From NCBI GenBank assembly GCA_964430885.1, contig CAYSHM010000006.1, positions 75,803 to 139,802 of the forward strand: a stretch of DNA of 64,000 nucleotides, read 5' to 3'. The notes beneath the pieces were generated by a model. That model was not told the origin of the DNA. It saw nothing but the letters and a program-made list of their open reading frames with translations, and searched no databases. This document shows positions 4,191 to 22,400 of the stretch, piece after piece; the first letter of the stretch is position 1, and each line of letters begins with the position of its first letter. The stretch comes from an uncultured archaeon (GTDB taxonomy: Archaea > Thermoplasmatota > Penumbrarchaeia > JASLWR01). The translations under genes were made by a program, and so were the position numbers.

Positions 4191-4238
4191 AAATTGAATT
4201 AATAGGATCAGATATCATAGATCAAGGAGTGTAAGAAA

Positions 4239-4532: not shown

Positions 4533-4550
4533 TCGAGGGAGGTTTTAATA

Positions 4551-5981
4551 ATGGAGATCAGGCAGGATCAGATAAATAATATTGTGGATGAGATAGTTAG
4601 AAGAGTGGAGCTGGATATGAGCTATGGGAAACCGAACATGGGGCCAGCCAAGCAGGGAGGCACTACAGGTATCTACAGCACTATTGACGAGTGTATTGAG
4701 AAGGCGAAGAAGGCAAGAAAGTTTTTGATGTCAATGTCATTGGATCAAAGGCAGAAGCTGATAGATGCCATGAAAGGGGAGATATTGCAGAACGCAGATC
4801 CTCTGGCCAAGCTTGCTGTTGAGGAGACTGGATTGGGTCGGTACAAGGACAAGGTGAATAAGAACATTCTGGCTGCGACAAAGACCCCTGGATGCGAGGA
4901 CCTGCAGACTGAAGCCCAGACGGGCGACGACGGTCTCACACTGTACGAGATGGGGCCCTTTGGAATTATAGCTTCCATAACACCTACTACCAATCCCACG
5001 TCAACGATCACATGCAACTCCATCGGCATGATCGCTGCTGGAAACGCTGTTGTGTTCAATCCCCATCCGAGGGCTACCAAGACCAGTCTGGAGACCATAA
5101 GACTGCTGAACCGGGGTATTCAGTCGGCAGGAGGTCCTACTGATCTTATAACAACGGTTAAAAAACCAACAATTGACACAAGCCAGGCTCTTATGAACCA
5201 TAAGGAGGTCAATCTACTCTGCGTAACCGGCGGTGAAGGAGTGGTGCATTACGGTCTTACCAGAGGGAAAAAATGCATTGCAGCAGGTCCGGGAAATCCT
5301 CCTGTTTTCGTGGACGATACCGCTGATCTGATACGGGCGGGCAGGGATATTGTGGACGGAGCCAGTTTTGACAACAATATCCTCTGTATAGCTGAAAAAG
5401 AGGTTCTGGTATTCGAAAATGTGGCAGATAGGCTAATCTCTGAGATGAGGAAACACGGTGCACATCTGGTCAGCGGAAAGGAGATAGACCGGCTGATAGA
5501 TTTGGTATTCAATGATCCCTCGGGAGAGATCCCCCTGGTGAACACCAAATGGGTGGGTCAGGATGCAGGTAAGATACTGCGGAACATAGGAATAACCGAT
5601 AAGTTCAATGCGCGATTGATCCTTGCCGAGGTTCCTCACGATCATCCATTCGTGCTGGCTGAAATGCTAATGCCAATACTGCCCATAGTTAGGGTGAAAT
5701 CCATAGATGAGGCCCTTAAAATTGGTCTGAGAGCCGAACATAGATTCAGACATACCGCAGCTATGCATTCCACAAATGTGGACAATATGACCAAGGTGGG
5801 ACGGGCAATGGAAACCACAATATTCGTTAAGAACGCTCCATCCTATGCAGGTCTGGGTTTTGGAGGTGAGGGATACTGCTCCCTTACAATAGCCGGACCA
5901 ACCGGTGAAGGAGTTACAAGGGCGAGGAATTTTGCCAGATTGAGAAGATGTACGCTCAAGGATTCATTCAGAATTGTGTGA
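4551..5981 (+). CDS. CoA-acylating aldehyde dehydrogenase (PduP/EutE-like) with N-terminal encapsulation-peptide-like helix
   Basis: 476 aa; catalytic-Cys region 'DNNILCIAEKE', 'GPFGIIASITPTTNPT'. N-terminal 'QDQINNIVDEIVRRVEL' amphipathic helix followed by linker. GAGGGAGG upstream. Confidence 0.85.
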   Translation: MEIRQDQINNIVDEIVRRVELDMSYGKPNMGPAKQGGTTGIYSTIDECIEKAKKARKFLMSMSLDQRQKLIDAMKGEILQNADPLAKLAVEETGLGRYKDKVNKNILAATKTPGCEDLQTEAQTGDDGLTLYEMGPFGIIASITPTTNPTSTITCNSIGMIAAGNAVVFNPHPRATKTSLETIRLLNRGIQSAGGPTDLITTVKKPTIDTSQALMNHKEVNLLCVTGGEGVVHYGLTRGKKCIAAGPGNPPVFVDDTADLIRAGRDIVDGASFDNNILCIAEKEVLVFENVADRLISEMRKHGAHLVSGKEIDRLIDLVFNDPSGEIPLVNTKWVGQDAGKILRNIGITDKFNARLILAEVPHDHPFVLAEMLMPILPIVRVKSIDEALKIGLRAEHRFRHTAAMHSTNVDNMTKVGRAMETTIFVKNAPSYAGLGFGGEGYCSLTIAGPTGEGVTRARNFARLRRCTLKDSFRIV

Positions 5982-6028
5982 ATAATAATCGATAATAAAT
6001 ATTTCAGTCCAGCAGATCAGGTGAAAAA

Positions 6029-7390
6029 ATGGCTTCATTGGGAACGGATATGGTAAGGAACTCGGGGATAATAGGTGCGGGTGGTGCAGGTTTTCCTACC
6101 CATGTCAAGCTGGCAGCTAAGGTTGATTGTGTAATAGCCAATGGTGCCGAATGTGAACCCCTTCTCAAGGCGGATAAGCAGCTCATGGAGCATTTCCCTG
6201 AAAAAATACTGGATGGTATGAAAGCAGCCATGGATATGACGGGAGCCCAGAAAGGTATAATAGCTCTAAAGAGAAAGTATGCGGATGCGGTGTCCTCCTT
6301 CAGAACTCGATTGGCGGATGCTGTGAACGGTAGATATGAAGGAATATCCATATTTGAACTTGAGAACTTCTATCCTGCAGGCGACGAACAGGTCATGGTC
6401 TATGAAGTGTTAGGACGGGTAATTCCCGAAGGCGCCATACCATTGTCAGCAGGTGTTGTTGTGGACAATGTGGGGACCCTGGCCCAAATATCGGAAGCCA
6501 TTGAAGGAAAAAATGTTACCCATCGGTGGGTAACGGTCACTGGTGAAGTGGCCTACCCAAAGACCCTTTACATCCCTATAGGTACTTCTATAGAAAAGAT
6601 GCTTGGATTGTGCGGGGGTCCGACAATAACCAATTACAGGATATTATCCGGAGGTCCCATGATGGGACGTCTAGTAAACCTTACCGATAGTGTTCTGAAA
6701 ACCACCTCGGGTATCATAGTTTTCCCGGCAGATCATTATGTTGTGAAGGCTAAAACCCGCCCGGTGGAAGTGAATGTTAGGTATACTTTAGCGGCATGCA
6801 TTCAGTGCAAAATGTGCACTGATGTATGTCCCAGATTCAATCTGGGTAAGTATGTATGTCCGGACAGTGTGATGAAAGGCATCGCTTACGGAATACTTTC
6901 AAAACCGGAGGATATGACCACCGCATTCCTCTGCGTTGAGTGCGGATTATGCACCCATTACGGATGCCCTATGGGTTTGGACCCCTGCGGTATGATGGGG
7001 AAGGTCAAATCCGAACTTATTTCCGAAGGTATGACGAACCCACATTCAAGGACGGATCTGTCTGCCAGGGAATACAGGCCTTTCAGAAAGGTTCCCCTAA
7101 AAAGATTGATGGCCAGGATGGATCTTTTGAGATATGATGTACCGGCACCCATGGAGCTGAAGGACCTATCGAAGGTTATTACAGAAGTGAATATCCCTCT
7201 TAAACAGCACATAGGCGCGCCTTCGAAACCTGTTGTGAAAGTGGGAGATCAAGTGAAGAAGGGTGAACTGATAGCAGATATTCCAAAAGGTTCTCTGGGG
7301 GCACGGTATCATTCCAGCATTAACGGTGAAGTAACAGGTGTGGATTCCTGCATCAGTATTAGAGCAAAGAAAATCGGAGGAATTGAATGA
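6029..7390 (+). CDS. PduS-like RnfC-family Fe-S flavoprotein (electron-transfer partner of PduT)
   Basis: 'GIIGAGGAGFPTHVKLAAKVDCVIANGAECEPLLKADKQLM' nucleotide-binding motif; two Cys clusters 'CIQCKMCTDVCP' and 'CVECGLCTHYGCP'; PduS-type C-terminus. Confidence 0.8.
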   Translation: MASLGTDMVRNSGIIGAGGAGFPTHVKLAAKVDCVIANGAECEPLLKADKQLMEHFPEKILDGMKAAMDMTGAQKGIIALKRKYADAVSSFRTRLADAVNGRYEGISIFELENFYPAGDEQVMVYEVLGRVIPEGAIPLSAGVVVDNVGTLAQISEAIEGKNVTHRWVTVTGEVAYPKTLYIPIGTSIEKMLGLCGGPTITNYRILSGGPMMGRLVNLTDSVLKTTSGIIVFPADHYVVKAKTRPVEVNVRYTLAACIQCKMCTDVCPRFNLGKYVCPDSVMKGIAYGILSKPEDMTTAFLCVECGLCTHYGCPMGLDPCGMMGKVKSELISEGMTNPHSRTDLSAREYRPFRKVPLKRLMARMDLLRYDVPAPMELKDLSKVITEVNIPLKQHIGAPSKPVVKVGDQVKKGELIADIPKGSLGARYHSSINGEVTGVDSCISIRAKKIGGIE

Positions 7391-7944
7391 GAGAGTCTAT
7401 AGGTCTCATGGAGTTCAACAGCATTGCAAAGGGTATTGAGGTGACGGATGTTCTTCTGAAGGCTTCCGAGGTGGAACTCATATTCTCATCGCCGGTGTGT
7501 CCTGGAAAGTATCTGATAATGATCTCTGGTGAGGTGGAGGCTGTTAAGAATTCACTGGGAAAAGGAGCCGACATATCGGATGGTTTCCTCATCGATCAAA
7601 GTGTAATACCTCAGGTTCATGAAAAGGTGTTCCCAGCCATAGCTGGGACCACACTGCCCGAGGTGATGGGGGCCATTGGTGTCATAGACTGCTATTCTTC
7701 GGTTTCGGCAGTAGTGGCAGCCGATAAAGCGGTGAAATCCGCCGATGTAGATCTGCTGGAGATTCGATTGGCCAGGGCGTTGGGAGGAAAGGCCTTTGTC
7801 ATAATAACAGGTGAGGTTGCCGATGTGAGGGCAGGTGTCGATAACGGAGTTGAGTCCATAAAGGAACACGGACTGCTGCTGGGCACAGTGGTAATTCCGT
7901 CCCCCCACCAGGACCTACTGGAAACGTTGATAGGATCGAGATGA
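7387..7944 (+). CDS. PduT-like tandem BMC-T shell protein with conserved Fe-S ligand Cys38
   Basis: 185 aa, two BMC domains; 'SIAKGIEVTDVLLKASEVELIFSSPVCPGKYLIM' parallels PduT '[34 protein letters not shown]' as recalled. Start ATG overlaps PduS stop (ATGA). Confidence 0.85.
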   Translation: MRESIGLMEFNSIAKGIEVTDVLLKASEVELIFSSPVCPGKYLIMISGEVEAVKNSLGKGADISDGFLIDQSVIPQVHEKVFPAIAGTTLPEVMGAIGVIDCYSSVSAVVAADKAVKSADVDLLEIRLARALGGKAFVIITGEVADVRAGVDNGVESIKEHGLLLGTVVIPSPHQDLLETLIGSR

Positions 7945-8041
7945 TCAGATCATAAATTCATATCACGATTAATTAAATTAATTAATTGATGAATAATTTG
8001 AAGAATATAATCAAGAAGATGAAAAATAGAAGTTGATTGAA

Positions 8042-8548
8042 ATGAGAATTTGCAGGGTAATAGGCAATCTGGTATCCACATGCAAGATACCTGATCACGA
8101 AGGTTTCAAGATACTGGCGGTTCGTGCTGTCGATCTTCACGGCAGAATGCATGGTGAGACCTTTCAGGCTATAGATTGCGCCCAGGCAGGTGTGGGTGAT
8201 TTTGTGCTCGTGATAGAGGAAGGAGGCTCCTGCAGTCAGGTGATGAGCGGAGTTAAGTCGCTAACCCCCAAGGGTGACCGGGTGGCAGTCAACAAGTCCA
8301 TTCTTGCTGTTGTGGATTATATTGAGGCTGATGGAGAGCTCAGAAGGCTGGAGCAGACAGCAGAGATGGAAGAGGATGGAGGAAAGAAAAAATTAAGAAG
8401 TACCAAGGTTAAAAGAAAGACCTCCAAGGCTACTGGAAAAAAGGGTAAAGAAAAAAAAAGTGAAAAAACGTCAGGAAAAAATTCCCGCAAACCTGCTAAA
8501 ACCTTGGCAACAAAGAAAGGCAAGGGCGGTAAGAAGAAGAAGGGTTGA
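8042..8548 (+). CDS. BMC vertex protein (EutN/CcmL family) with about 60-aa lysine-rich C-terminal extension
   Basis: 'MRICRVIGNLVSTCK...AIDCAQAGVGDFVLVIEEGG' BMC-P core, then tail 'GKKKLRSTKVKRKTSKATGKKGKEKKSEKTSGKNSRKPAKTLATKKGKGGKKKKG'. ORF-track start 8033 is TTG; first ATG at 8042. Confidence 0.8.
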   Translation: MRICRVIGNLVSTCKIPDHEGFKILAVRAVDLHGRMHGETFQAIDCAQAGVGDFVLVIEEGGSCSQVMSGVKSLTPKGDRVAVNKSILAVVDYIEADGELRRLEQTAEMEEDGGKKKLRSTKVKRKTSKATGKKGKEKKSEKTSGKNSRKPAKTLATKKGKGGKKKKG

Positions 8549-8554
8549 TAGATT

Positions 8555-9469
8555 ATGTCAGAAGACGAGCTCAGAAAGTTAGTAGAAAACATGGTTCGAT
8601 CCATGCTGGAATCCGGTTCTGTGGAGATACAGAAGGGAACTGCTCTAAGGACCCAGGGAGATATCTCAAGGCCTACCAACAATTATTTTAATGATCAGAT
8701 GGAGGGTAATGCCCGGTATGTGGTTGCAGCCAATTGGAAGATGAACATGACCACCATAGAGGCCAAGGAATTCGCTATGCAGATAAGGGCCTTAGGAGAG
8801 GAAATTTCCAATAGTAAAAGGGATGCAGTGGTCTGTCCTCCTATTTATTTGGCTCCTCTTCTGAAAACAGCGTTCATGGGGACGGGTATCCGGTTGGGCG
8901 GTCAGAATATGCACCATGAGACCAAGGGTGCTTATACCAGCGAGATATCGCCTCTAATGCTTAAGGATGCGGGTTGTCAATATGTGATAATTGGACATTC
9001 TGAAAGGAGACATATATTTGGTGAAAAGGACCATCATATCAATATGAAGGTGAGGTCAGCTTTCAATCATGGCCTTGTACCTCTTTTCTGCGTTGGCGAG
9101 ACCGAGAAGGAACGGGAGAGCAATGCTACCTTCAGGGTTGTCAGGAAACAATTGAAATTGGGCCTCTATAAGACAAGCTCCAAGCAATCCGGCAGGCTGA
9201 TAATCGGTTATGAACCGGTTTGGGCAATAGGCACTGGGAGAAATGCTACTCCGGCTGACGCCCAAAGGGTACATGCATTCATCAGGGAGGTTCTGACGGA
9301 GATCTACGATTTCCCCACGGCCAAGAATATCAGGATTCTCTACGGCGGAAGCGTTACACCTGATAATGCTTCAGGTCTTATAGCCAAAAAAGATATCGAC
9401 GGTTTCCTGGTGGGGGGTGCTTCTCTCACCGCTTCCAAGTTTATGAGCATAGCGGAGGTGTGCAAATGA
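8555..9469 (+). CDS. tpiA: Triosephosphate isomerase, bacterial type, with about 50-aa N-terminal extension (putative encapsulation peptide)
   Basis: 'AANWKMN', 'IGHSERR', 'YEPVWAIGTG', 'YGGSV' motifs. N-terminal 'EDELRKLVENMVRSMLE' amphipathic helix precedes the catalytic core. Confidence 0.85.
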   Translation: MSEDELRKLVENMVRSMLESGSVEIQKGTALRTQGDISRPTNNYFNDQMEGNARYVVAANWKMNMTTIEAKEFAMQIRALGEEISNSKRDAVVCPPIYLAPLLKTAFMGTGIRLGGQNMHHETKGAYTSEISPLMLKDAGCQYVIIGHSERRHIFGEKDHHINMKVRSAFNHGLVPLFCVGETEKERESNATFRVVRKQLKLGLYKTSSKQSGRLIIGYEPVWAIGTGRNATPADAQRVHAFIREVLTEIYDFPTAKNIRILYGGSVTPDNASGLIAKKDIDGFLVGGASLTASKFMSIAEVCK

Positions 9470-9945
9470 GCCAGGATATGAGGAAGATATTGATAGGTAG
9501 TGATCACGGGGGATTTGAGTTAAAGGAGATTATTAGACAGTTCCTCAAGGACCAGGGATACCGGGTTGTTGATTTTGGTTGCTATTCGCCGGACCCTGTT
9601 GACTATCCAGATATTGCCTTTTTGGTCTCTCAGGGGGTGTGTTCGAATCCTAATTCAATTGGTATAATGATAGATGGGGTAGGTGTTGCCAGTACAATGG
9701 TTGCAAACAAGATTCCCGGGATCAGGGCCGCCCTTTGCTGGAATCAGTTCAGCGCACACAATGCACGTGAGCACAACAATGCAAATATGCTCGTCCTAGG
9801 GGGTAGGGTAATCGGTGATATATTGGCCAGGAGCATTGTGAAGGAATTCCTGGAAACAGAATTTGCCGGCGGACGGCACGCACGGAGGGTAGACAAGATA
9901 ATGGCGATTGAAGCCAAATATCTGAGGTCTATTCAGGAAAAATGA
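9466..9945 (+). CDS. rpiB: Ribose-5-phosphate isomerase B (RpiB/LacAB family)
   Basis: 'KILIGSDHGGFELKE', 'MLVLGGRVIG', 'FAGGRHARRVDKI'. ATG at 9466 overlaps tpiA stop (ATGA); alternative ATG at 9478. Confidence 0.8.
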   Translation: MSQDMRKILIGSDHGGFELKEIIRQFLKDQGYRVVDFGCYSPDPVDYPDIAFLVSQGVCSNPNSIGIMIDGVGVASTMVANKIPGIRAALCWNQFSAHNAREHNNANMLVLGGRVIGDILARSIVKEFLETEFAGGRHARRVDKIMAIEAKYLRSIQEK

Positions 9946-10047
9946 GTTAAAAGTTAACAGAGTTAGGATAAATTTATTAGTTCAGTGTAATAATAATATA
10001 AAACTTAATAATATAGAGTTGAGAGACGAATCTTGAGGAGTGAACCA

Positions 10048-10335
10048 ATGTATATCGGTAAAGTAATGGGAACCGTGGTGGCCACAAGGAAGATAGATAC
10101 CCTTAAAGGGATCAAACTGCTCCTAATACAGCCCTTGGATGATGATATGAAACCCTCGGGAAGGTTACTGGTGGCCGGGGATGCCCAGGGAGATACAGGA
10201 GAAGGTGATGTGGTATATTTGGTCACCAAGAAGGAAGCCTGTTTCCCCTTCGGTGGTCTGACCCCCCTTGATCACGCTGTGGCGGGTTATATTGATGATT
10301 ATCATATTGAAGAATCTTTAAAAGAGGGGAAATAA
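10048..10335 (+). CDS. BMC vertex protein (EutN/PduN/CcmL family), third paralog
   Basis: 'MYIGKVMGTVVATRKIDTLKGIKLLLIQP...LVAGDAQGDTGEGDVVYLV'. ORF-track TTG start at 10033; first ATG at 10048 after GAGGAG. Confidence 0.8.
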   Translation: MYIGKVMGTVVATRKIDTLKGIKLLLIQPLDDDMKPSGRLLVAGDAQGDTGEGDVVYLVTKKEACFPFGGLTPLDHAVAGYIDDYHIEESLKEGK

Positions 10336-10640
10336 GCATAACATGGACACTGCGGACAACCATCCAAGGCTCTATTTACCTGGAAGAAATATTTGGACAG
10401 TAAATAATAATATAGGAATAAGGTAAGATTAGTGTGTTAATTTAATCCTGTTACCAGGATGTGAATTCATAATAGTATTGGATAGGGCATGGGTATGAGT
10501 AAAGGTAAAAAGCAATAGATGAAAAATTCGAAATCAGCTATTGAAATGTATAATCAATCAAAAATTATTGAGAAGTAGTAGTCAAGGATTATTACAATGG
10601 AGATACATTGAATCCAAAACAAATCAAGGAGGAAAAATAA

Positions 10641-10934
10641 ATGAGAGATCTACAGAAAATTGCATTGGGAATGATTGAGACAAAGGGAGAGATAGGAGCT
10701 ATAGAAGCTGCAGATGCCATGGTAAAGGCAGCCAAAGTGACCCTTATCGGAAAGGATTTCGTCGGCGGCGGCTATGTGTGCGTTATGGTCAGGGGAGAGG
10801 TTGGGGCTGTCAAGGCGGCAATAGACGCCGGTGGAGCCGCTGCAGCCAGGGTCGGAGAGCTTGTCTCAGTTCACGTTATTCCCAGGCCCCACGAGGAAGT
10901 AGAGGATGTTCTGCCTTCCATTGATAGGGATTAA
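10641..10934 (+). CDS. BMC hexamer shell protein (BMC-H, PduA/EutM/CcmK-like)
   Basis: '[26 protein letters not shown]...[33 protein letters not shown]' matches the canonical BMC-H pattern closely. AAGGAGG upstream. Confidence 0.9.
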
Positions 10935-11265
10935 AGTAATACTGCATTAAATTGTTATTTGCAGGGATGGGCTGAAATATTCGCCTGCTCCCTTAGAGAA
11001 CAGGATTTGCATTTGGAGATTTATCCTCAAAATAATAATGATATTCTTTTAGGAAGATCATCTGAATGTTTTATCCTGCAATTTACTCAATAGGATTAAA
11101 TCGAATTGATATCTATGGTGATCATGAAAGCAAAGGCCATATGTCAATTACTTCCAGATTGAAATGCGGGTAGTATTGTTACCTTTGATATCAAGATCCG
11201 GGATATGGAATGTATGGCCTAAACACCACGAAAAAATTCAAGAATAGTGATAATGAAGTGATACA

Positions 11266-12705
11266 ATGGAAAGGGAGGAAGCGATCAAAAGGATAACCGA
11301 AGAGGTTCTTGCAAGAATTAGGGGCGCATCTTCGGGTAATTCTTTGAATACCTCACAGGGATCTGCCGCGGATCAATCCGAAAAGGGACGGAGTGCACCT
11401 TATTTAGCCTCTGGGGGAAAATCCATTATTATGATACTCAGCGGAGACCGGACTATTGAGGATCTGAGAGAGGACATCAGTTCCATATGCAGTAGCCAGA
11501 AGGTTGAAATGATAGTGGTATCCGATTGGGCTCTTAGGTCCTTCAACATCTTTAAACTCAAGGGTTTAGCTCCTGGGATAAAACTGCTCCAGGAGGGGGA
11601 CATATTGGGCAGCAAGACAATATCAGACATCTTATCAGACGTTGACTCGGTCTATGTTCTCGACCTGGATATTCCCAGTGCTTCGCGTATTGCAGATTTT
11701 GCTCCAGTGCTGCCTGCTGAAAGGGTTATCACAGGGGCAATTATTTCCGGTAAAAGCGTTATCTGTTCACATGCACTTCTGAGCCCAATGGCAGGGGAGC
11801 TAACTCCTCCATGCGCCCGTGAGGCCATTTCCGCAGTTGAGAAGAAGCTCGTGGCCGTCGGTGTTGCCATGCTTGGTTCGGGGACTTCTTTCAGTGATAA
11901 TGAAGCAGTGGAACAGGCCCTAGCCCGCTGCCCGGCGGGTGAAGGAGAATGTATTGGATGCGGATTGTGCGTGAACCTGAACACAGCAGGCGTGGAGAAC
12001 ATCTTTTCAGCCGGAGCCCAGAGGATTAGTACGGCTACCGGATTGGATACCCCCAATCCAGATATGGCTCGTATGATAGATCACACGCTGCTGAAACCCG
12101 CTGCCACAGAGGATGATATCCGGGAGCTATGTGATGAGGCTAGAAGATACAATTTCGCTACGGTATGTGTTAATCCATCCCATGTAGCCCTTGCAGCAAG
12201 GGAGCTGAGAGGAACGGATGTTGGTATCACCACTGTCATCGGTTTCCCCCTGGGAGCAACAACCCATACCGCAAAGTCCATTGAGACCCGGGATGCAATA
12301 GCCAATGGCGCCAATGAGATAGATATGGTGGTTAACGTTGGCGCTCTGAAGGCTGGCAACGATGATCTGGTAAAAAGGGATATTGCGTCAGTGGTGAACG
12401 CTGCAGGCAATGATGCTATTGTCAAGGTGATTCTTGAGACCTCTCTGCTGAATGACGAGGAGAAGGTCAGGGGCTGCCTGCTCTCAAAGATGGCCGGGGC
12501 GGATTATGTGAAGACATCCACTGGTTTTGGTCCTGGCGGCGCTACCGTAGAGGATATCCGCTTAATGAGGCAGACTGTGGGCCCAGATATGGGGGTTAAG
12601 GCCTCTGGAGGGATCAGAAATACAGACGATGCCAATGCCATGCTTGAAGCAGGTGCTTCAAGGATAGGTGCTAGTGCTTCAGTTGCCATTGTTAAGGGCG
12701 CATGA
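11266..12705 (+). CDS. deoC: Deoxyribose-phosphate aldolase (DERA/DeoC) fused to about 265-aa N-terminal domain of unknown function with Cys cluster and encapsulation-peptide-like N-terminus
   Basis: C-terminal 'IDHTLLKP...VCVNP...[12 protein letters not shown]...VKASGGIR' are DeoC hallmarks. N-terminal '[15 protein letters not shown]' amphipathic helix; Cys cluster '[14 protein letters not shown]'. Confidence 0.85.
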
Positions 12706-12818: not shown

Positions 12819-14678
12819 ATGAATGAAAAAGACCTCCAAAGGGACGATGGTCCCGCTACAGGGAATACCATGGAAAATGAAGAGGAGTTTTCATACACTT
12901 CCGGTGAAATAACCGGCAAATCTCCCATGGAGCAAACTCTGGATCAAGGTCTTCAATTTCTCGAATACCTCCAAAAGCGGAAGGAAACATACAGGGCGGT
13001 CAAACTATATTTTCATAATGACATGGACGGTTTTGCTTCCTCACTTCTTGTGAACCATCTCCTGACAAAGATCGGTTATGAAATTCCTCTGGAGAACATA
13101 CACCCCTTGGCTCATGTCAACCTGAATAATGTGGCAATAGATGAACAGCATCTATTTTTCTTTGTAGATATACGGCCCCCTAGCTCAGCTTTCAAAGAAT
13201 CAAGTCTGGCGGGAGAGGATAGACCTTTCATGGAAAATGTTTTCTGTGTGGATCATCACACAACCCTGGATTCACCCCTTTCACCCCATGCGAATTTCTT
13301 TCTTTACAACTATGAGATCGATGATATTCTTCCATCCACTGCCACCTTCCTGATGTATTATCTTGTAATGCTTGAGAAAGGGATCAGGGGAACCTACGGT
13401 GCCCTCATGAGGGAATGGATGACGAACCCCCCCATGAACACAAGATATCTTCTGCTACAGGCCACCATTGCTGATCATCTTCATCTTCTGTCGGAAAAGC
13501 TACCCAATAATCCCCTGAGGTATCTATCCAACCTGCTTATTGAGGATATGGATGCCTATGTGCTCCTATCAATAACCACCTCACTGCTGCTGGGAGGGGA
13601 CGGCGGACATATGGATATGTTCAGGCAACTATATTCCGAAGCCCTGGGGAATATCAATCAGGAATTAATGGCCCAGAAATTAGAGAACAATCTTTCTCAG
13701 GTACTTTCGCTTTTTGAATTCGTGGATATTCTCATGAAGAAGCGTAAGGAATTCATCGATGATATGGCCAAGGATATGGATGGGGAGATCCAGAGAACAG
13801 AAGCTGGGATCAGCGGAATGACGGATACCCTGAATAACTATAACACCGCAGCCGATAAGATCAAGGAGGAACTCTCATTCCAGAATATAGCTATGGGGAA
13901 ACTGAAGGATCTTCGAAATGATTACATGGGTATCAGGGAGCAGATGACGCGTTTAGAGAACCAGATAGGTATTGAGTTGGGAAGGCTTGAAAAACAGAAA
14001 GTTCTCAGATACCATCTTGTGGCTGAAGGAGACATCAATTTATCAGTTTTCCTGCCACCCCAGAACAATGATCAGGTTAGAGGCATACTGTCATCACTTC
14101 TATTTTATCACGGTAATAACAACATCATCATAGAGGAGAAGACATCCAAGGCCGTGTGGAGTTCAAGGGGTTATGAGGGAAAGGAATTGGAAAGCTTCCT
14201 GACAACAGTATCGGTGGACATGGAGAAATTGATGGAACTGAAGGAACATCAGGAGGCGGTGGAGGAATTTAAGGGAGATCCAACCATAATTGAGAAGCTT
14301 GAATTGGATGAGAGGTCCCCTCCTTTGATATCTGTGGAGAACCGATATATCGGACAGATGGGTGGCAGGAGTAGGATATTCGGCGGTATCATTACCAGCA
14401 ATGTCACCCTTGATGCTAGCACTTTGGTTCAAGACAGAGGAGGTAATGAACTACAGTCCATACTTACGGTTCCTCACCAGCGGTTCTGGATATCAACTAT
14501 ACAAGCAATAAAGGAAAAATTCAAGGAGAGCCAGTGGTTCACAGTACAGGTGGAAGGGGGTGCAAGCTTGGGCGAGATACTCTCAGACCAGTGGGAGCTG
14601 CTGCTGATGCATTTCATGGGCAATAGGATGTCATACAGGATTTTTGAACTGAAAAGCAATGGTCAAGATGGCATCTGA
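12819..14678 (+). CDS. DHH-family phosphoesterase-like protein with central coiled-coil
   Basis: 'HNDMDGFAS' and 'VDHHT' resemble DHH motifs I and III of RecJ/NrnA-type phosphoesterases; rest unassigned. Confidence 0.45.
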   Translation: MNEKDLQRDDGPATGNTMENEEEFSYTSGEITGKSPMEQTLDQGLQFLEYLQKRKETYRAVKLYFHNDMDGFASSLLVNHLLTKIGYEIPLENIHPLAHVNLNNVAIDEQHLFFFVDIRPPSSAFKESSLAGEDRPFMENVFCVDHHTTLDSPLSPHANFFLYNYEIDDILPSTATFLMYYLVMLEKGIRGTYGALMREWMTNPPMNTRYLLLQATIADHLHLLSEKLPNNPLRYLSNLLIEDMDAYVLLSITTSLLLGGDGGHMDMFRQLYSEALGNINQELMAQKLENNLSQVLSLFEFVDILMKKRKEFIDDMAKDMDGEIQRTEAGISGMTDTLNNYNTAADKIKEELSFQNIAMGKLKDLRNDYMGIREQMTRLENQIGIELGRLEKQKVLRYHLVAEGDINLSVFLPPQNNDQVRGILSSLLFYHGNNNIIIEEKTSKAVWSSRGYEGKELESFLTTVSVDMEKLMELKEHQEAVEEFKGDPTIIEKLELDERSPPLISVENRYIGQMGGRSRIFGGIITSNVTLDASTLVQDRGGNELQSILTVPHQRFWISTIQAIKEKFKESQWFTVQVEGGASLGEILSDQWELLLMHFMGNRMSYRIFELKSNGQDGI

Positions 14679-14939
14679 TTTTCTGCACCTGAAATATGAT
14701 CACTTCACTTCGATAGCCTATCATCCAATGATATATTCCAATGAAAAATTTTAAAAATGATACACCTTTTCCACTTACAGAACCGAATAGGAGTTTTTTC
14801 GGGGATAATATGAACTAAAAAATGTTATACTTGGTGTAACATAAACATGGATTCATAGTGTATTGGTTTGATCAATCAAAGTGCTAAGGGGATTGAATTG
14901 ATCTTGGTGATCTCCCGAGGAGATACAAGAGGTGGATAG

Positions 14940-15827
14940 ATGAACATTGAGAACAAGTTATGGTTTGGAATCATAGTAGGTGCAGTTGTTTTGCTGATAG
15001 TTTCAGTTATTCTTTATGCTACATTCAAAGAGGAAAACGTTGAGGAAGGAAAGACCTCCATTCCTGTAATTCTAGAGGGTTATGAGATAGAGTACAAATA
15101 TACGGTCCGAATCGGCGGACCTAACGGACCGGTATATGATTCCAATATGGACAATATCATAAACTCATCTCTGGTTGAGAAAACGGTTTTCTATAATAAC
15201 TATGCTCAATGGCCGGAACGTTTCATAGTTGGTGAGCACCCGGCCGATGCGGAATTACCTTCCTTCAGCGATCATTTCATTGGACATGAGGAAGGGGACC
15301 ATTTCAATTTCGTTCTTTCGGGGGTGAGCCGTCTAGAATATAACGACAGTAAAAGGGTGGAAATACCTGTGAAGGAGAAGATACCTCTCTATGAGACAGT
15401 GAACAAAGAGCAGTTCAAATCATCGTTAGGAGCTGTGGATTTGAAGGTTGGTATGATATATAATCATGGTTTTTGGGGATGGGAAATTGAGATTTTTGAA
15501 TTTATCGACGAGAATAATATGACAATTTATCACAGACCTGAGATAGGTTACGAAATAGATGTTCTTCCCTGGTCTTCCGAAGTGAAGGATGTATCATCTG
15601 AAACGGGTTTCATAACTCTGAATCATGATCTGACAGATAAAGATCTTCTAAAGGGCCAGTTCTACCCCTTTGAATACACGGATTATTCTGACCATTTTGA
15701 TAATATGAACAATCCGGGTTACATCCAACAGCTTGGTCCGAATTATATAGTGATCGAGTTCAATGATGAACGCGCAGGTGCGGATATTTATTTTGATATA
15801 GAGATAGTGAGGATTCTGAATTCCTGA
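14940..15827 (+). CDS. N-terminally membrane-anchored protein, function unknown (possibly FKBP-like)
   Basis: N-terminal TM helix 'LWFGIIVGAVVLLIVSVILYA'; ORF with ATG start. Confidence 0.4.
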   Translation: MNIENKLWFGIIVGAVVLLIVSVILYATFKEENVEEGKTSIPVILEGYEIEYKYTVRIGGPNGPVYDSNMDNIINSSLVEKTVFYNNYAQWPERFIVGEHPADAELPSFSDHFIGHEEGDHFNFVLSGVSRLEYNDSKRVEIPVKEKIPLYETVNKEQFKSSLGAVDLKVGMIYNHGFWGWEIEIFEFIDENNMTIYHRPEIGYEIDVLPWSSEVKDVSSETGFITLNHDLTDKDLLKGQFYPFEYTDYSDHFDNMNNPGYIQQLGPNYIVIEFNDERAGADIYFDIEIVRILNS

Positions 15828-15839
15828 TGAGGTGATGTA

Positions 15840-16766
15840 ATGGCAAGGAAAAGAAGCGTGGACGGATCAAAAAGAGGAAAACACGGCGGAGACGCATCCA
15901 TGTTCGATGATATCGATGAGTACAGTATAAGGGAAGAGGTGAGGGGTTCGGTCATGAAGGAGTCATCCCGCAGAAAAGCCTTAATGCCTTATGTGGTTCT
16001 GGTACTTGTAATATTAGCAATAATAGGAGGGTATTTTGCCTACATGTATCTTATAAAGGAAGACAAGGATACACCTGCTTCTGATTTCAATGAGGATAAT
16101 TCCTTCATTGCAGATGTGGAGATAAAGGTAGAGACCAAGACCGATGGTGATGGAAGCCACAGCCCTTTTGATTACAGTATGCACAAGGTTGATCCTTCTA
16201 GGGGAACCCAATACCTGCTTTTGATCAAGAACAAGGGTGAAGAAAAGGATTCTTTCCGATTGACTGCGGACAATCCCAGCGGTTGGTCAGTCACCTTCGA
16301 AGGTGGTAATGTCATGACGGACATGTCCCCGGGGTACTGGGATTACAAGATAATGACCATAAAGGTGACTGATTCAAGTGATTCCTATAGGGACATAAAG
16401 ATTACAGCTACTTCATTATCAGACCCGTTAGTAAAGGACAGTATTATCACCAAGAACACAGTGGAATCTCTTCCTCCTGGCGAAGCAGATCTGAACAATG
16501 ATCCGGCTAAGGTAGATTACAATTTGGTATATTACGGCGGAGGAACTTCCGGGGAGAAGGGCTGGTATCATAATCAGGGTAGCGAGTTCGAGGCCACAAA
16601 TGTTATTCAGGGGTTCAAGGAGGCCATCAAGGGAATGAGAGTAGGCCAGACCAAAGTAATAGAGGTTCCACCTGAAAAGGGATATGGTCCGGATGATGAG
16701 AAGCATGTTGGCGGCCGTCCCCTGGTCTTCGAGATCACAATGCTGGATGTCAACACCAATAATTAG
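15840..16766 (+). CDS. Membrane-anchored protein with C-terminal FKBP-type peptidyl-prolyl isomerase domain
   Basis: TM helix 'VVLVLVILAIIGGYFAYMYL'; C-terminal 'FKEAIKGMRVGQTKVIEVPPEKGYG' FKBP-like. Confidence 0.55.
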   Translation: MARKRSVDGSKRGKHGGDASMFDDIDEYSIREEVRGSVMKESSRRKALMPYVVLVLVILAIIGGYFAYMYLIKEDKDTPASDFNEDNSFIADVEIKVETKTDGDGSHSPFDYSMHKVDPSRGTQYLLLIKNKGEEKDSFRLTADNPSGWSVTFEGGNVMTDMSPGYWDYKIMTIKVTDSSDSYRDIKITATSLSDPLVKDSIITKNTVESLPPGEADLNNDPAKVDYNLVYYGGGTSGEKGWYHNQGSEFEATNVIQGFKEAIKGMRVGQTKVIEVPPEKGYGPDDEKHVGGRPLVFEITMLDVNTNN

Positions 16767-17009
16767 AACGATCAAGTTCGACCAGCTAAGTGCCGACCCA
16801 CAAAGCAAAAACTCAATCATCCCTCGTTTGGAAACAATGGGTTTGATTTGTAAGTTAATTATTAATAGGAGTTTGAGGAATAAGGGTCGGAAATGGAATC
16901 CTTTGGCATTTGGGTATAATAGTGTATATTGAATGACATGGGAACTCCGATTTAATCAATAACTATAGTTCACACTGATGAATATTAATGGATAAGGAGA
17001 GGTGTAAGG

Positions 17010-17288
17010 ATGAAGTTGCCAAGAAGGATAAAAACGTACTGTCCGTTCTGCAAGGTCCACACGGAGCATAAGGTGGAAAATGTGAAGAAGAAGAAGGCTT
17101 CTGAGCTGAAATGGGGACAGAGACGTTTCAGAAAGGTAATGAGAGGGTACAGGGGATTTCCCAGACCCAAACCCGAAGGCAGGGAAAAACCAACCAAAAG
17201 AATATATCTACGAAAAAGGTGCACCCAGTGCAATAAAGCTCATCAGAGCAAATGTTTCAGATCAGGGAAATTTGCGTTCAAGGATTGA
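17010..17288 (+). CDS. rpl44e: Ribosomal protein L44e (eL42)
   Basis: '[15 protein letters not shown]...KRCTQCNK' zinc-ribbon ribosomal protein pattern; archaeal/eukaryotic-specific. Confidence 0.85.
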
Positions 17289-17293
17289 TAATT

Positions 17294-17509
17294 ATGCATA
17301 TACAAAAACAGACCAAGTATTTGGATACACCTAACAGCAAATACTTAAAGGTGAAATGTCACGACTGCATGAACGAGCAGGTAATATTCAACAAGGCCAG
17401 TAATGTTGTGAAATGTTTGGTTTGCGGGGCTACTTTAGCAGAACCCACCGGCGGAATGGCCAAGGTAAAGAGTAAGATATTGGCCGTTGTTGACAGAAAG
17501 TACAGATGA
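17294..17509 (+). CDS. rps27e: Ribosomal protein S27e (eS27)
   Basis: '[36 protein letters not shown]' matches the S27e C4 zinc-finger pattern. Alternative ATG at 17252. Confidence 0.8.
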
Positions 17510-18297
17510 AGGTAGAGATTTATATGGCAAACCGATTCGAATGGCCTTTGGAAGATGAACTGGTTGTATGTACCGTAAAAAGGGTTCTTGATTATGGTGC
17601 TTTTGTTACCCTGGATGAATATCAGGATAAAGAAGGCTTCATCCATATTGCTGAGATCGCTTCCGGTTGGGTCAAATATATCGGCAACCATATTAGAGAA
17701 AAGGCCAAGGTTGTTACCAAGGTCCTTCGTGTGGATCCTCGAAGGGAGCATATAGATCTCTCCTTGAAGAGGGTCAATGACCACCAGAAGAGGGCAAAGA
17801 TACAGGAGTGGAGAAGAAATACCAAGATGCTGAAGCTCTTCGAACTTCTCTCAAAAAGAATAGAGAAAGAGCTGAAATTGTGTTATAGAGAGTTTGGTTT
17901 CTCACTGATGGAGAAATACGGCTCCCTTTATAACTCCTTTGAAGCGGTATCTATCAATAACAATGTCCTTGAAGAGGACGGTTTCCAGGGAGACTGGGTG
18001 GAGCATTTTGTTGATATTGCACGGACCAATATAACTCCCCCCTATGTATCCATTTCAGAGAAAATATACCTATTCTCTCCTGCTCCCAATGGAGTGGAAC
18101 ATGTTAAGGAAGCTATAGGTTCGGTGATCAAAAATTCCGAGGAAAACGTCAAGATCACCTATGTAGGGGCGCCGGAATACCGGATCTCCGTCATCGCCCG
18201 CGATTATAAAAATGCGGAATCAGTAATGGCTAATACTGCAGGAGATGTTATTGATAAGATAACATCAACGGGCGGTTATGGTTCATTCGATAGATAA
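17506..18297 (+). CDS. eif2a: Translation initiation factor 2 alpha subunit (aIF2-alpha)
   Basis: S1 domain '[41 protein letters not shown]'. ATG overlaps the S27e stop. Confidence 0.8.
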
Positions 18298-18323
18298 ATA
18301 ATTTTTTCAAGAGGGCATGGATC

Positions 18324-18503
18324 ATGAAGCATTTTTTATTCAAGTGTTCAGAATGTTCAGTCTATACTATGGACCAACAATGCCCAGAATGCGGTAATAC
18401 AGCTTGGGCTGTGGAACCCCCTCGTTTTTCACCACAGGACCGTTGGGGGAAATACCGCAGAAAGTTATTACTTAACTTGGAGAATGATGAGAATGATGGA
18501 TAG
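18324..18503 (+). CDS. nop10: H/ACA ribonucleoprotein component Nop10 (59 aa; absent from ORF track)
   Basis: Hand translation from ATG 18324: MKHFLFKCSECSVYTMDQQCPECGNTAWAVEPPRFSPQDRWGKYRRKLLLNLENDENDG, stop TAG 18501-18503. Zinc ribbon plus 'PPRFSP' motif; canonical position after aIF2-alpha. Confidence 0.7.
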   Translation: MKHFLFKCSECSVYTMDQQCPECGNTAWAVEPPRFSPQDRWGKYRRKLLLNLENDENDG

Positions 18504-19260
18504 TGTGATCTTCCAAAAGGAAAATGTTCCCGATTGCCAGAATGCGGTATTGATAGAGGGATTACCGGGAATAGGACGGGTAGGTCAGATAGCAGCAGAT
18601 TATTTGGTGGAAAAATTGAATTCGGAAAAATTTATCACAATTTATTCACCCTTCTTTCCTCCTCAGGTTATGGTTGATGATGAGGGTCTGGTTCATCCCA
18701 TGATTCAGGAAATGCATCACTGCATCACTAAATCAGGACGTCATTTACTGTTCTTAACCGGAGACTATCAGGGTTTGACTGGCGAAGCCCAGTATGCTCT
18801 CAGTCATGAAGTATTGAAACTCGCAAGCTCCATGGATGTGAAAGAGATCATAACTCTAGGTGGTTACGGTGTTAGAAAGATACTTGAAGAACCCAGGGTA
18901 CTCGGTGCTGCCACTTCAAATGAAATTGTCTCCAAAATGGAGGAATTTCAGGTTGTGTTCAAAAGCGAACACCCCACGGGCGGTATTGTAGGAGCATCCG
19001 GTATATTGCTTGGATTGGCTCCGCTGTTTGATCTTGAAGGGGTTTGCCTAATGGGTGAGACCCATGGTGCCTATCCAGATCATATTGCTGCAAAGATGAT
19101 ATTGAAGGTGCTGGATGCATATCTGGATCTGGATCTTGTTTATGATGATCTGGATGAACCCTCTCCCGCCCTGGAGGCCCTGAAGGCCCAGATAAAGGAA
19201 ATGGATCAGGAAGCAGAAAAAGGTTACAAGGAAGAACAAGAACTGAACTATTTTGTATGA
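18484..19260 (+). CDS. PAC2-family proteasome assembly chaperone
   Basis: 'NAVLIEGLPGIGRVGQIAADYLVEKL' N-terminal motif. Start uncertain (ATGs at 18484/18493/18496); overlaps nop10 3' end. Confidence 0.65.
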   Translation: MMRMMDSVIFQKENVPDCQNAVLIEGLPGIGRVGQIAADYLVEKLNSEKFITIYSPFFPPQVMVDDEGLVHPMIQEMHHCITKSGRHLLFLTGDYQGLTGEAQYALSHEVLKLASSMDVKEIITLGGYGVRKILEEPRVLGAATSNEIVSKMEEFQVVFKSEHPTGGIVGASGILLGLAPLFDLEGVCLMGETHGAYPDHIAAKMILKVLDAYLDLDLVYDDLDEPSPALEALKAQIKEMDQEAEKGYKEEQELNYFV

Positions 19261-19426: not shown

Positions 19427-22400
19427 ATGGGAGTTCATCATATGGCCGCAACTTTTTCAGGTAAGAAAGGTATCTATTCAGTTATTTTAATAATTATTAT
19501 TATTTTATGTGGTTACTCAGGTTTTATCCCATTGGTGTTGAGGAATGAAGACCAATTTATATGTTCCTTATTGCCGTCCGATCCAAATTCTGAGGACAAT
19601 GATGAGATTATAGATGGCAATATTGATAATGATATAATTACAAGAGGGAAAGGTTGGTTCTACCAAATGATCGACTTTCGGGACGAATCGGGTTTGGGGC
19701 AATCACCTTCTGCCAGATTTGACTCCATAGGGAATCTTCATGTAGGGTACGAGGATAGAGAAGCGGACCGCTTGAAATATACTTACTGGAACGGAAACCA
19801 ATGGGATATCCAAGTAATTGCCGGTTCAGATCCGGGGGATCCCATTGATACGGAAGGGCGTCCTTATATGGTGCTTGATGATATTGATAGTCCCCATTTT
19901 GCCTATATTGATGATGATGAACACCTCAAGCACACTTACTGGGACAACGACCATTGGGCCCATGAAATTGTGGATGGCATTTCCCAGTGCAAGGGTTATA
20001 CTCCTCTGGTAATAGATGGGAACGGCAGTATTCATGTGACGTATTATGATTCTATTATTACTGCCTTGAAGTATGCCTATTTCGATGGTAATTTCTGGAA
20101 TGCCACCGTTGTGGATTCATTCGGAGACGTGGGTGAGTATTGTTCAATAGCCGTGGATTCGGAGAACAATCCCCATATTAGCTATTTTAATGATTCGGCG
20201 GACGATCTTAAATATGCAACCTTTAACGGAATGTCCTGGAGCAACCAAACAGTTGATTCCACGGGTTTTGTAGGCCAATACACATCTATAGCAATCGGGA
20301 CTGATCAGCACCCTAGGATCAGTTACAGAGACGTGACCAACCGATTTCTGAAATTTGCGTTCTTCTTCAACGGGAACTGGACCATCGAATCCGCAGATTC
20401 AACACCCCAGGATGTTGGAAAGGACTGCAGTCTTTTTCTGGATTCATCGGATAATCCTCATATTTCATATTTTGATGATTCCTGGAATGACCTGAGGTAT
20501 GTTCATCATGACGGTGAGCAGTGGAACATGGGGATAATAGATTCCGATTCAACAGCTGGAGACTACACCTGTATTGCTCTAAATGGGACTGACAGTCCTC
20601 ACATTTTTTATCATAGGGAAAATGACGGCGAGCATACCTTGGAATATGCAAATCTGATAGAGGAGTACAGCAACCCTTTCCTAATTTCAGATGAGACTGC
20701 CGAGTATGGTACTACAGGTGAAAAGCTCCAGTTCAATATAAGCGCGGGCGATAATTTTGCAGTTAAGAATGTTAAGGTGAATTGGGAACACAACGGAACC
20801 AGCGAGAACCTTTCCCTTGTTGAGGGTAATTCATTTTGGATTGGAGAGGCCGAAATAGAGCACGATTTGGCTACTCTAAACTATACTATCTACATAGAGG
20901 ATTACTGTCAGAACCATTACAATAGCCATCAGTTCAGAGTAAATATCAGTGATGATGACCTTCCGGTGATTATTGGTGATTCAAGTCCGAATTTCGGAAC
21001 TACTGGTGATATTTTTAGATTTAATATAACTGCCTATGATAATATTGGACTGGATACTATAAAAGTCAACTGGACCCATGGGAATCTGGCTGGAAATACT
21101 ACATTGACCGAATCCATAGATGGCTATTGGAATTCCAGTATAATACTTGATCATAACCTTAGCGATATGAACTATACTATCTTCATAAATGATACATCAA
21201 ACAACAGCATAACAGTGCCGGGGGTACCAGTGAATATTTCAGATGATGATCTTCCGGTTCTCATAGAAGACATGTCCCCTCTATCAGGAACAACAGGTGA
21301 TGATTTCCTTATACAATTGTCACTGGATGATAATATAGGTGTTGAAGGTGCATTCGTGAACTGGAGTCACGGCGGTTTAGATGATAATATCTCCTTGGTG
21401 CTGCAAAGGGGTCGATGGACCAGGACAATACAGCTGGACCATAACCTTTCTGATTTGCAGTACTATGTATTCTTCAATGATACCTCTGGTAACAGCAATG
21501 CAACCCCGGTTCTCAATATAGAAGTTCACGACAATGACCTTCCCTATCTGGATGACATAAGCCCTGACAATGGCACCACAGGGGATCCGTTCGAGTTCAG
21601 AATCACTACTGGAGACAATATAGATGTCGGAAGTGTTAATATATCCTGGGAACATGGGAATCTGAGCGGTAATGCTCCTCTTGCTGAGGAAGGCCCCAAC
21701 CTTTGGATGGGCACCATCTTTCTCGACCATTCCATTGAACATCTATCCTATTATGTGCAGGTAAATGATACCGCAGGCAACAGTGTCAATCATCAGGGGC
21801 CAATGGTCCATGTAATGGATAACGATGATCCTTTTATTCAGAATGATAATTCCAGCGGCACAGGATCCACCGGTGATAATTACACGTTTTTGATACAGCC
21901 TTTGGATGATGTTTGGGTCAGCAGTGTGCTTGTCGACTGGAATCACGGTGAGGCCGATGGCAGGCTAGAACTGATCAAGAACAATACTGGATTCTGGGAG
22001 GGCATTGTTTCTCTAGTTGATGATATTGGTGATCTGGAATATACAGTACAGATAAACGATAGTTCGGGAAATTATCACATTAGTTCCAAGCGTTTCATTA
22101 TGATATTGGATAATGATATTCCTATGATTAGGGAGAACAACTGTCCGAATTTCGGGACCACTGGCGATGAATATATTTTCAGTATGGAACCATGGGATAA
22201 TATCGAGGTTGATAGTGTCAATGTGAGTTTTAATCATGGTCCGATGGATGAAAACATTGAGCTAGAAAAAGGACTTGGTGATTCCTGGTCTGCTAAGATT
22301 TACATGGCTCATTCTCTATCGAATCTCGAATATTCCTTTCAGGTAAATGATACTTCAGGTAATTTTTATCGAAATGAATTGACAAATGTCCAAGTATTCG

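Follow-up and report, generated by a model that had tools for sequence, protein, structure and literature searches.

The window analysed here, a 64,000-nucleotide stretch (positions 75,803 to 139,802 of contig CAYSHM010000006.1, assembly GCA_964430885.1) from an uncultured archaeon of the Thermoplasmatota lineage JASLWR01, carries at 2792..12705 a complete operon for a bacterial microcompartment (BMC) of the sugar-phosphate-utilisation (SPU) type. Two products of this operon are considered: a protein of 479 amino acids (aa) that ends in a deoxyribose-phosphate aldolase (DERA, or DeoC) barrel and is encoded by the open reading frame (ORF) 11266..12705, and a separate 263-aa protein whose gene sits between those for BMC-T(dp) and a BMC-P. 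Both genes, and all features described within them, lie on the + strand. The 265-aa N-region of the fusion is a composite, in which an encapsulation-peptide (EP)-like helix and a disordered linker are followed by a ~155-aa domain of the HFCD flavoprotein fold and then by a ~45-aa module carrying four Cys and an 'AGAxR' motif, all ahead of the DERA barrel. The separate protein, 248-263 aa long depending on its start codon, is a true paralog of the fusion's helix and core, with a tail in place of the Cys module and DERA. From this layout we infer an assembly role: with a probability of roughly 0.55, both proteins are non-catalytic assembly factors, a scaffold paired with a core-shell linker, and not redox enzymes.

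Modular anatomy of the aldolase fusion

The C-terminal part of the fusion is a bona fide DERA barrel. The TIM barrel spans aa 266-479 plus the stop codon (12061..12705; AlphaFold2 (AF2) pLDDT 70-96), aa 266-476 match the TIGR00126 deoC equivalog model at E 6e-86 (287 bits versus a cutoff of 117), and the domain also matches PF01791 (E 6e-14). Pfam and NCBIfam scans of aa 1-265 returned nothing above threshold, and the same scans of the 263-aa protein gave an equivalent result, in agreement with a preliminary description of this DNA, which had recognised no family in either protein. That description had treated the 265 residues as a single unknown domain; instead, they resolve into separate parts. 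An amphipathic EP-like helix occupies aa 3-23 (11272..11334; helical in the AF2 model), with I10, E13, V14 and L15 invariant across the family alignment. The helix is kept, in the form 'I.RIT.EVL', in all full-length relatives of the N-region, and a '..I(T/A)REVL..' helix is also found at the N-terminus of short-extension BMC DERAs from many phyla; it is not present in the Streptococcus and Bacillus (non-BMC) DERAs compared. The low-complexity, disordered linker that follows (aa 24-50, 11335..11415; pLDDT 27-33, without secondary structure) is conserved in neither length nor sequence in the family alignment. It leads into the core (aa 51-205, 11416..11880), a TIGR02536-like domain of HFCD-flavoprotein fold with a degenerate FMN motif, which AF2 modelled as a beta-alpha-beta domain with pLDDT 70-86. 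The reading frame of this inserted domain is intact and its AF2 fold is confident (pLDDT 83.6), as is the barrel, while the Cys-containing aa 211-258 were left unmodelled (pLDDT <50) in the apo model.

Fold comparison showed that the core has the Rossmann-like three-layer alpha/beta/alpha fold of EpiD, PPC-DC and UbiX, with dodecameric UbiX and EpiD entries among its fold relatives. Its identity to the HFCD flavoproteins of PF02441 (EpiD, MrsD, PPC decarboxylase/CoaC, UbiX/Pad1, dipicolinate synthase B and AfpA/DmrB) is 7-17%, and unlike these proteins the window domain has an N-terminal EP, an aldolase fusion and a BMC locus. The PF02441 profile did not match the N-domain of the fusion or the 263-aa protein even at E up to 10, and phmmer searches with the two window proteins against PDB sequences returned only noise. 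The N-domain of a relative, P0005, does match both PF02441 (E 3.7e-7) and TIGR02536 (E 1e-5) (P and L numbers are our labels for proteins and loci), and when the family profile was compared with the PDB, the best match was DpaB (E 0.055), located exactly at the 'PASANT' helix. Overall, 8 of the 12 members of the combined family match TIGR02536, the best at 7e-12. All scores are well under the curated cutoff of that family (at most 45 bits versus 152.6): the best relative, L010, reaches 45.4 bits and the 263-aa protein 17.9 bits as a whole or 20.3 bits for its tail, and the N-domain of the window fusion gave no match. The core is a very divergent, microcompartment-specific branch of the HFCD fold, and TIGR02536 ('eut_hyp') is its nearest curated family. 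Members of TIGR02536 share with the 263-aa protein the architecture of a core followed by a C-terminal 'ITPLA' tail, and are likewise encoded in BMC operons; they form an uncharacterised family of Firmicutes-type EUT operons, whereas the window locus is of the SPU type.

The residues that would contact the cofactor differ from those of HFCD enzymes. The position of the PASANT motif reads 'DLDIPS' in the N-domain of the fusion and 'VIGYSL' in the 263-aa protein; Pro or Ser replaces the PASANT Asn in the window proteins, and the motif holds two Asp. At the position of the catalytic His67 of EpiD, the window proteins have no His, and none is conserved in the family. Judged from these residues, the flavin-binding signature is degenerate in this organism.

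An exhaustive phmmer search with the N-region gave five matches among 1.84 billion representative proteins. Two are further DERA fusions (P0002, 43% identical and adjoining a BMC-H gene, and P0005), one is a standalone relative of 248 aa (P0006), and one is a fragment (P0004). The fifth, P0003 (2604 aa, 29 matched stretches), is a protein of ~90-aa tandem repeats and was set aside as irrelevant. In a word-indexed protein search the N-domain matched nothing, itself included, and the 263-aa protein matched only itself; the family profile, used in the same search, added P0007 alone. Genome and metagenome scans with patterns derived from the N-domain found no relatives, and a DERA-anchored genome scan was the only one to yield them, including full-length bacterial fusions and dozens of short-extension BMC DERAs. 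The bacterial fusions come from Ca. Ozemobacter/Riflebacteria (L005:9998-11482, L011:9305-10807 and L006:2-1459) and from Elusimicrobia (L016:9317-10792). No N-terminal EP helix is apparent in the L016 fusion, whose long linker, containing 'GKVF', is common to the Elusimicrobia DERAs L015, L017 and L020. Every relative is either encoded in a BMC/SPU locus or fused to a BMC-type DERA, consistent with the suggestion in the preliminary description that these are BMC-specific accessory modules.

The standalone paralog and its C-terminal tail

The ORF of the second protein ends at 4190 and could start at 3399, 3411 or 3444. Gene calls differ accordingly, with 248 aa from 3444 in JGI/Logan (P0001) and 259 aa from 3411 in NCBI/ENA. 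A gene starting at 3411 would overlap the upstream BMC-T(dp) gene, whose end is at 3421. The 3444 start is preferred, because the conserved N-terminal helix then begins at residue 1 and homologs open with 'MD(S/P)D(E/R)L'. The protein consists of an EP-like helix (MDPDRLRTIVLEQVRRYFQ; 3444..3500), which aligns with the fusion-family EP in both hhalign and MAFFT, an HFCD-fold-like core (3552..4013; aa ~37-190 of the 248-aa protein, from hhalign), and a C-terminal tail of ~45 aa and of shell-binding type, 'VLTEDI...VITPLARERARELNI' (4053..4190 with the stop codon), which matches the C-terminus of TIGR02536.

Using independently built profiles, hhalign aligned the standalone protein with the N-domain of the fusion at 98.9% probability (E 1.2e-17) over 190 columns, which run from the N-terminal helix through the entire core; with a shallower profile, the probability was 75.8%. 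To the same effect, a profile made from only three standalone proteins (those of the window, of L010, a Paenibacillus SPU locus, and of L024) recovered all fusion N-domains in its first search, with P0005 at 1e-13, P0006 at 4e-8, L016 at 1.5e-6 and the window fusion at 5e-4 (aa 48-208). Pairwise BLASTP of the fusion with the 263-aa protein gave no significant match, so that profiles are needed to see the homology. The preliminary description had proposed that the two proteins are distant paralogs and had named profile alignment as one of the checks; the paralogy is borne out, whereas the segments that had been paired in its support are not homologous. The segment 'GRVLTEDIINS...VITPLARERAREL' of the 263-aa protein, which had been likened to a stretch of the fusion core, is part of the separate C-terminal tail motif of ~45 aa, and the likeness is no better than chance. 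A hidden Markov model of the tail motif, searched without filters, gave no match to aa 152-190 of the fusion, the best fusion match (E 41) lying elsewhere, in DERA. In the true homologous register, the counterpart of the fusion segment in the 263-aa protein is NPLADLALTALRSGLDVGVAVDTL...RRPKLISESTRIQKGL.

Within the window, the tail motif is found only in the 263-aa protein, and the DERA-fused N-domain is without it. The "VITPLARE" tail matches positions 163-205 of the 207 positions of TIGR02536 (E 3.5e-4), and the motif is strongly conserved. Among relatives, the tails of L010 and L014 match the N-terminal positions 3-50 of EutQ (E 0.004-0.08), a small protein of L027 matches EutQ positions 4-100 (E 7e-5), and tails also match the C-terminus of PduM. 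The EutQ N-terminus, PduM and the 263-aa tail share the pattern 'h(L/I)T..D(I/V)...G...(I/V).V....(I/V)(I/V)TP.A(R/K)E.A...(I/V)'. The 263-aa protein differs from EutQ in that the motif is C-terminal and joined to an HFCD-like core, without a cupin or acetate-kinase domain. In Salmonella, EutQ is the tether between core and shell, with aa 9-41 as its shell-binding part (Sci Adv 2025, PMC12487888). PduM, which combines a C-terminal copy of the tail motif with an N-terminal signal helix, is a structural protein whose loss partly uncouples the core from the shell (mSphere 2025, PMC12108088). One relative, L024, matches the PduM family TIGR04493/PF15953 (TIGR04493, E 3.8e-4), to which the window proteins gave no match. 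Homology between the body of PduM and the HFCD-like core was not significant when tested with a real PduM sequence; in the comparison with A7, the EP alone aligns.

Bacterial SPU loci contain the ~45-aa motif too, where it makes up a separate family, 'FYTERDIEDL...V(L/I)T(E/P)LAREKA..GI'. It occurs there in proteins of ~115-140 aa that consist of the motif, a linker and a C-terminal EP helix and resemble the EutQ N-terminus, and it is also inserted between EP and RpiB in N-terminally extended RpiB proteins. The loci of these bacterial tail-motif proteins are L027:14702.., L019:13713.., L012:14846.., L009:6278.., L063:14630.. and L013:14799..; L018:9121.., L025:9165.., L047:3874.., L026:2.. and L057:1446...

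A four-cysteine module upstream of the barrel

Between core and barrel, the fusion carries the cluster C222-x6-C229-x2-C232-x2-C235 (aa 222-235, 11929..11970), which the preliminary description had picked out and which is present as read from the sequence. Given the 10 Cys among the 479 aa of this single protein, four within 14 residues have a union-bound chance of ~0.07. All four are retained in every full-length relative (P0002, P0005 and P0006, at 24-43% identity) and in L016, and chance is therefore excluded. The motif is thus conserved in the homologs, and neither outcome that the preliminary description had named as refuting its proposal was observed. The cluster had, however, been described as a feature of the inserted domain, and a four-Cys cluster is found at the same position in most BMC-type DERAs that are without this domain. 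Forty-four EP-bearing DERAs were curated for a survey of Cys residues, and 23 of these have at least four Cys within 20 residues directly upstream of the barrel; most of the remaining sequences have two or three, some together with His pairs. The spacing is of the CxxCxxC type in the window clade, L016 and L023, whereas CxxCx3Cx3C, CxCx4Cx3C and Cx3Cx4Cx3C are seen in Chloroflexota and others, and CxxHHxxC in Acidobacteriota.

The cluster is joined to the barrel by an 'h..h..AGAxR[ILV]....G' segment (aa 240-260, 11983..12045), and the distance from the cluster to 'AGAxR[ILV]' is fixed at 9 or 13 residues. In an alignment of 41 sequences, G250, A251 and R253 each show conservation of 90% or more. 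When ~29 sequences were laid side by side, aa 240-260 were seen to be a near-repeat of the C-terminal helix and beta-8 strand of DERA itself (aa 455-472, 12628..12681), which suggests either that part of the DERA C-terminus has been duplicated or that the segment is a strand able to dock onto the barrel or to swap with it. The near-repeat is conserved across phyla (~29 loci, for example L007, L012, L018 and L025).

The cluster is found in three settings: without the HFCD-like domain, in most bacterial SPU DERAs; with it, in archaea, Riflebacteria and Elusimicrobia; and in P0006, with the domain and without DERA. The combination of EP, Cys cluster, AGAxR and DERA without a flavoprotein-like domain occurs in Chloroflexota, Acidobacteriota, Elusimicrobia and others. 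Because it is found without the HFCD-like domain, the cluster is best regarded as a module of its own, generic to BMC-type DERAs. The four Cys plausibly form a metal site, for Zn or Fe-S. The best matches in the Fer4 clan (Fer4_15, Fer4_13 and Fer4) were below threshold, with E ~0.06 and 13.6-14.6 bits versus cutoffs of 21-24; the third Cys of the cluster is not followed by a Cys-Pro, and a 'CP' sits 6 residues upstream. A PduS-like MNdh within ~10 kb is missing for most four-Cys DERAs and is present beside the Cys-less DERA of L024. A partnership of the cluster with such an MNdh was considered and, given this lack of co-occurrence, rejected.

Variants of the module were also observed. The Riflebacteria fusions have two Cys clusters, with CTTCIGAGGCTSC right after the core and the second right before AGAxR. 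In an acidobacterial locus (L061:9353..), a single ORF encodes RpiB, an EP helix and DERA, in this order, without a Cys module. This single-ORF order of RpiB and DERA is that of the SPU3-type DERA/RPI chimera reported in PMC11585597.

Proposed assembly role and comparison with known microcompartments

In the mechanism proposed here, the EP helices would bring both proteins into the cargo core, where the HFCD-like domain may oligomerise, possibly as mixed oligomers of the two paralogs. Trimers and dodecamers are the usual assemblies of the HFCD fold, and DERA of the SPU type is dimeric, so that fusing one to the other would render the signature enzyme multivalent and enable it to nucleate or cross-link the core. 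The standalone paralog would fasten this core to the shell through its tail, much as other metabolosomes use EutQ, PduM and the PduB N-terminus. Most probably, the Cys knuckle holds a metal, either Zn or a small Fe-S cluster, which could stiffen or regulate the junction between scaffold and barrel. Oligomerisation, hetero-oligomerisation, shell binding and metal binding are all proposals.

Several observations weigh against this reading. The PASANT Asn is kept in the Riflebacteria, L016, P0006 and P0005 members, and the PASANT-helix region ('P.L..N.LSKIANL..D') is the most conserved stretch of the family; because other members retain the Asn, flavin binding is possible in the wider family and even in the window proteins. 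P0006 is a standalone combination of EP, core and Cys cluster without DERA, and its layout suggests that core and Cys cluster could be one functional unit. The window-type cluster contains a ferredoxin-like 'CxxCGxC' with a 'CP' nearby. As for the tail, that of the window protein matches only the TIGR02536 C-terminus, and the link to EutQ is indirect, running via TIGR02536 and relatives (E 0.004-0.08); the alignment of the standalone profile with Salmonella PduM (L086) by hhalign was collinear and had only 0.9% probability. Finally, the alignments given to AF2 were shallow, with 6 sequences.

The main rival reading is that the HFCD-like domain binds FMN and the four Cys hold a [4Fe-4S] cluster, as an electron-transfer or redox-sensing unit on DERA, which might feed or sense NADH/NAD+ recycling via the PduS-like MNdh and the Fe-S BMC-T(s). 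We consider this unlikely. The core does have the fold of FMN enzymes, P0005 matches PF02441 and the PASANT helix is the best-conserved motif of the family, but in the window the PASANT Asn is Pro or Ser, two Asp stand in the motif, the catalytic His is absent, and the sequences are without a Pfam match. A compact Cys-x6-Cys-x2-Cys-x5-Cys loop holds a [4Fe-4S] cluster in endonuclease III and MutY, 'ECIGCGLC' gives weak Fer4 and NuoI/TYKY matches (E 0.06-5), and in P0006 the core and Cys cluster come with no DERA; on the other hand, the cluster is found in most BMC DERAs without a flavoprotein-like domain, its spacing is highly variable, and sometimes only two Cys are present. Similarly, although genes for an MNdh (6029..7390) and for a CPGK-bearing BMC-T(s) are present in the window locus, Cys-bearing DERAs do not co-occur with MNdh, and DERA chemistry requires no redox cofactor, even if flavin Pfams, PF02441 included, are recurrent in BMC loci (Axen 2014). 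The redox explanation is therefore weakened by the degenerate motif, by a Cys cluster that occurs independently of the domain and by the missing linkage to MNdh.

Still less probable is a regulatory role for the Cys module as a thiol or Fe-S switch, with the HFCD-like domain as a passive spacer, in which oxidation or loss of the cluster would alter AGAxR docking and gate activity or packaging by oxygen or redox state. The fixed spacing of 9 or 13 residues from the cluster to a following element that mimics the phosphate-binding beta-8 strand of DERA would suit such a switch, as would the wide occurrence of the cluster in anaerobic lineages and a low pLDDT that is compatible with a conditionally ordered segment. 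The argument is purely inferential, though, and the EP-DERAs of L010, L024 and L081 have neither Cys nor AGAxR, yet stand in complete BMC loci; moreover, the N-terminally truncated SPU DERA described in PMC11585597 is active and dimeric, so that the Cys module is dispensable for catalysis. We also weighed, and find hardly credible, the notion that a once-functional BMC flavoprotein, carried in by horizontal transfer, survives in the inserted domain and the 263-aa protein only as decaying copies, functionless beyond the EP. Extreme divergence (the 5 relatives detectable in the phmmer search), a degenerate cofactor motif and a patchy family distribution are what decay would leave, whereas an intact ORF with a confident AF2 fold, strong conservation of the tail motif, and conservation of the core motifs and all four Cys between archaeal and bacterial members at 15-43% identity are not; the domain has, in addition, been independently recruited or retained in Riflebacteria, Elusimicrobia and archaea. 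A scaffold and core-shell linker pair remains our preferred reading of the two proteins.

Archaeal microcompartments were described by Du et al. 2025 (bioRxiv, November 2025; PMC12747264), who report DERA fused to a 'flavoprotein domain' in most Hodarchaeales operons, and the EP-dependent recruitment to archaeal shells of Flav+DERA (from a representative of the Hodarchaeales) and of a protein termed 'DUF'. The preprint thus covers the archaeal compartment as well as the Flav+DERA fusion and the DUF protein, and because the fusion had been flagged there in 2025, the present analysis refines known biology and adds no new system. What is added here is the paralogy of DUF and Flav, the tail of EutQ/TIGR02536 type, the degenerate cofactor site, and the recognition that SPU DERAs in general have a four-Cys/AGAxR module. 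The preprint makes no mention in its main text of a Cys cluster, a degenerate FMN motif, DUF-Flav paralogy or a EutQ/TIGR02536-type tail (PMC12747264), and the conserved four-Cys module on SPU DERAs is undiscussed in the published main texts searched.

Cargo-core nucleation and shell tethering are without a general account outside the Pdu, Eut and carboxysome models, and PduM and the TIGR02536 proteins are conserved and unexplained. The placing of 'DUF' and 'Flav' in one HFCD-fold family, with an EP helix and a core that is proposed to oligomerise, followed by a shell-binding-type tail in one case and by the signature enzyme in the other, provides a modular layout and with it a concrete model, open to test, of how SPU-type and archaeal microcompartments assemble. 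Caution is also called for in taking the label 'flavoprotein domain' as redox evidence in models of energy conservation in the archaeal compartment. A much broader generalisation can be offered only tentatively, and we rate it as rather doubtful: that a single HFCD-derived pseudo-flavoprotein superfamily (archaeal 'DUF', 'Flav', TIGR02536 and possibly PduM), each with an N-terminal EP and a EutQ-type tail, could be the general core-organising, core-to-shell linker of catabolic microcompartments, and that the four-Cys knuckle with its pseudo-beta-8 strand could be an unrecognised metal-dependent control of SPU DERA packaging or activity.

The operon encodes, in order, BMC-T(dp), the 263-aa protein, BMC-P, aldehyde dehydrogenase (AldDH), PduS-like MNdh, BMC-T(s), BMC-P, TPI, RpiB, BMC-P, BMC-H and the DERA fusion, and its flanks are archaeal (12819..19260 and 47167..48174: RecJ-like, L44e, S27e, aIF2-alpha, PAC2 and Cbf5). 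BMC-T(s) (7387..7944) is a tandem-domain protein in which 'SSPVCPGKY' contains the CPGK Fe-S ligand motif; its gene overlaps that of MNdh (6029..7390) by 4 nt, and the two are translationally coupled. The second BMC-P (8033..8548) has a Lys-rich, disordered C-terminal tail of ~65 aa (GGKKKLRSTKVKRKTSKATGKKGKEKK..., nt 8345..8545), the same feature as the DNA-binding intrinsically disordered region described for AMC-P2 of Hodarchaeales in PMC12747264. TPI (triosephosphate isomerase) has an N-terminal extension of ~55 aa that opens with an EP-like helix (MSEDELRKLVENMVRSMLESG, nt 8555..8620). Elsewhere in the window are two adjacent ORFs of equal length, 1403 aa each (28167..32378 and 32546..36757, both on the - strand), and two further large ORFs of 1535 aa (19427..24034, + strand) and 1304 aa (54610..58524, - strand); a Pfam scan of the 1535-aa ORF returned nothing at E up to 1e-5.

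The bacterial counterpart of the fusion is the SPU DERA characterised in Commun Biol 2024 (PMC11585597), for which the main text reports an N-extension of ~70 aa comprising an amphipathic helix and 'two beta strands of low pLDDT'. The extension causes the enzyme to aggregate, and the N-terminally truncated DERA is dimeric and active; cysteines, metals and a likeness to the DERA C-terminus are not mentioned in that main text. As far as can be judged from its description there, the bacterial extension agrees with the window protein in its EP helix ('..ITREVL..') and in its pre-barrel segment, which corresponds to the Cys/AGAxR module. In the window DERA, by contrast, the EP is separated from the Cys module by an insertion of the HFCD-like domain and linker (~185 aa). 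The closest known systems are the archaeal operons of the preprint (PMC12747264), which are like the window locus of the SPU type, with a DERA-flavoprotein fusion and a separate DUF that both carry EPs, a Lys-rich tail on BMC-P2, CPGK on BMC-T(s), and an MNdh. With its T(dp), one BMC-H, T(s) and three BMC-P, and with no PTAC or citrate synthase, the window operon fits the layout given there for the order JASLWR01 (Thermoplasmatota), and not that of Hodarchaeales.

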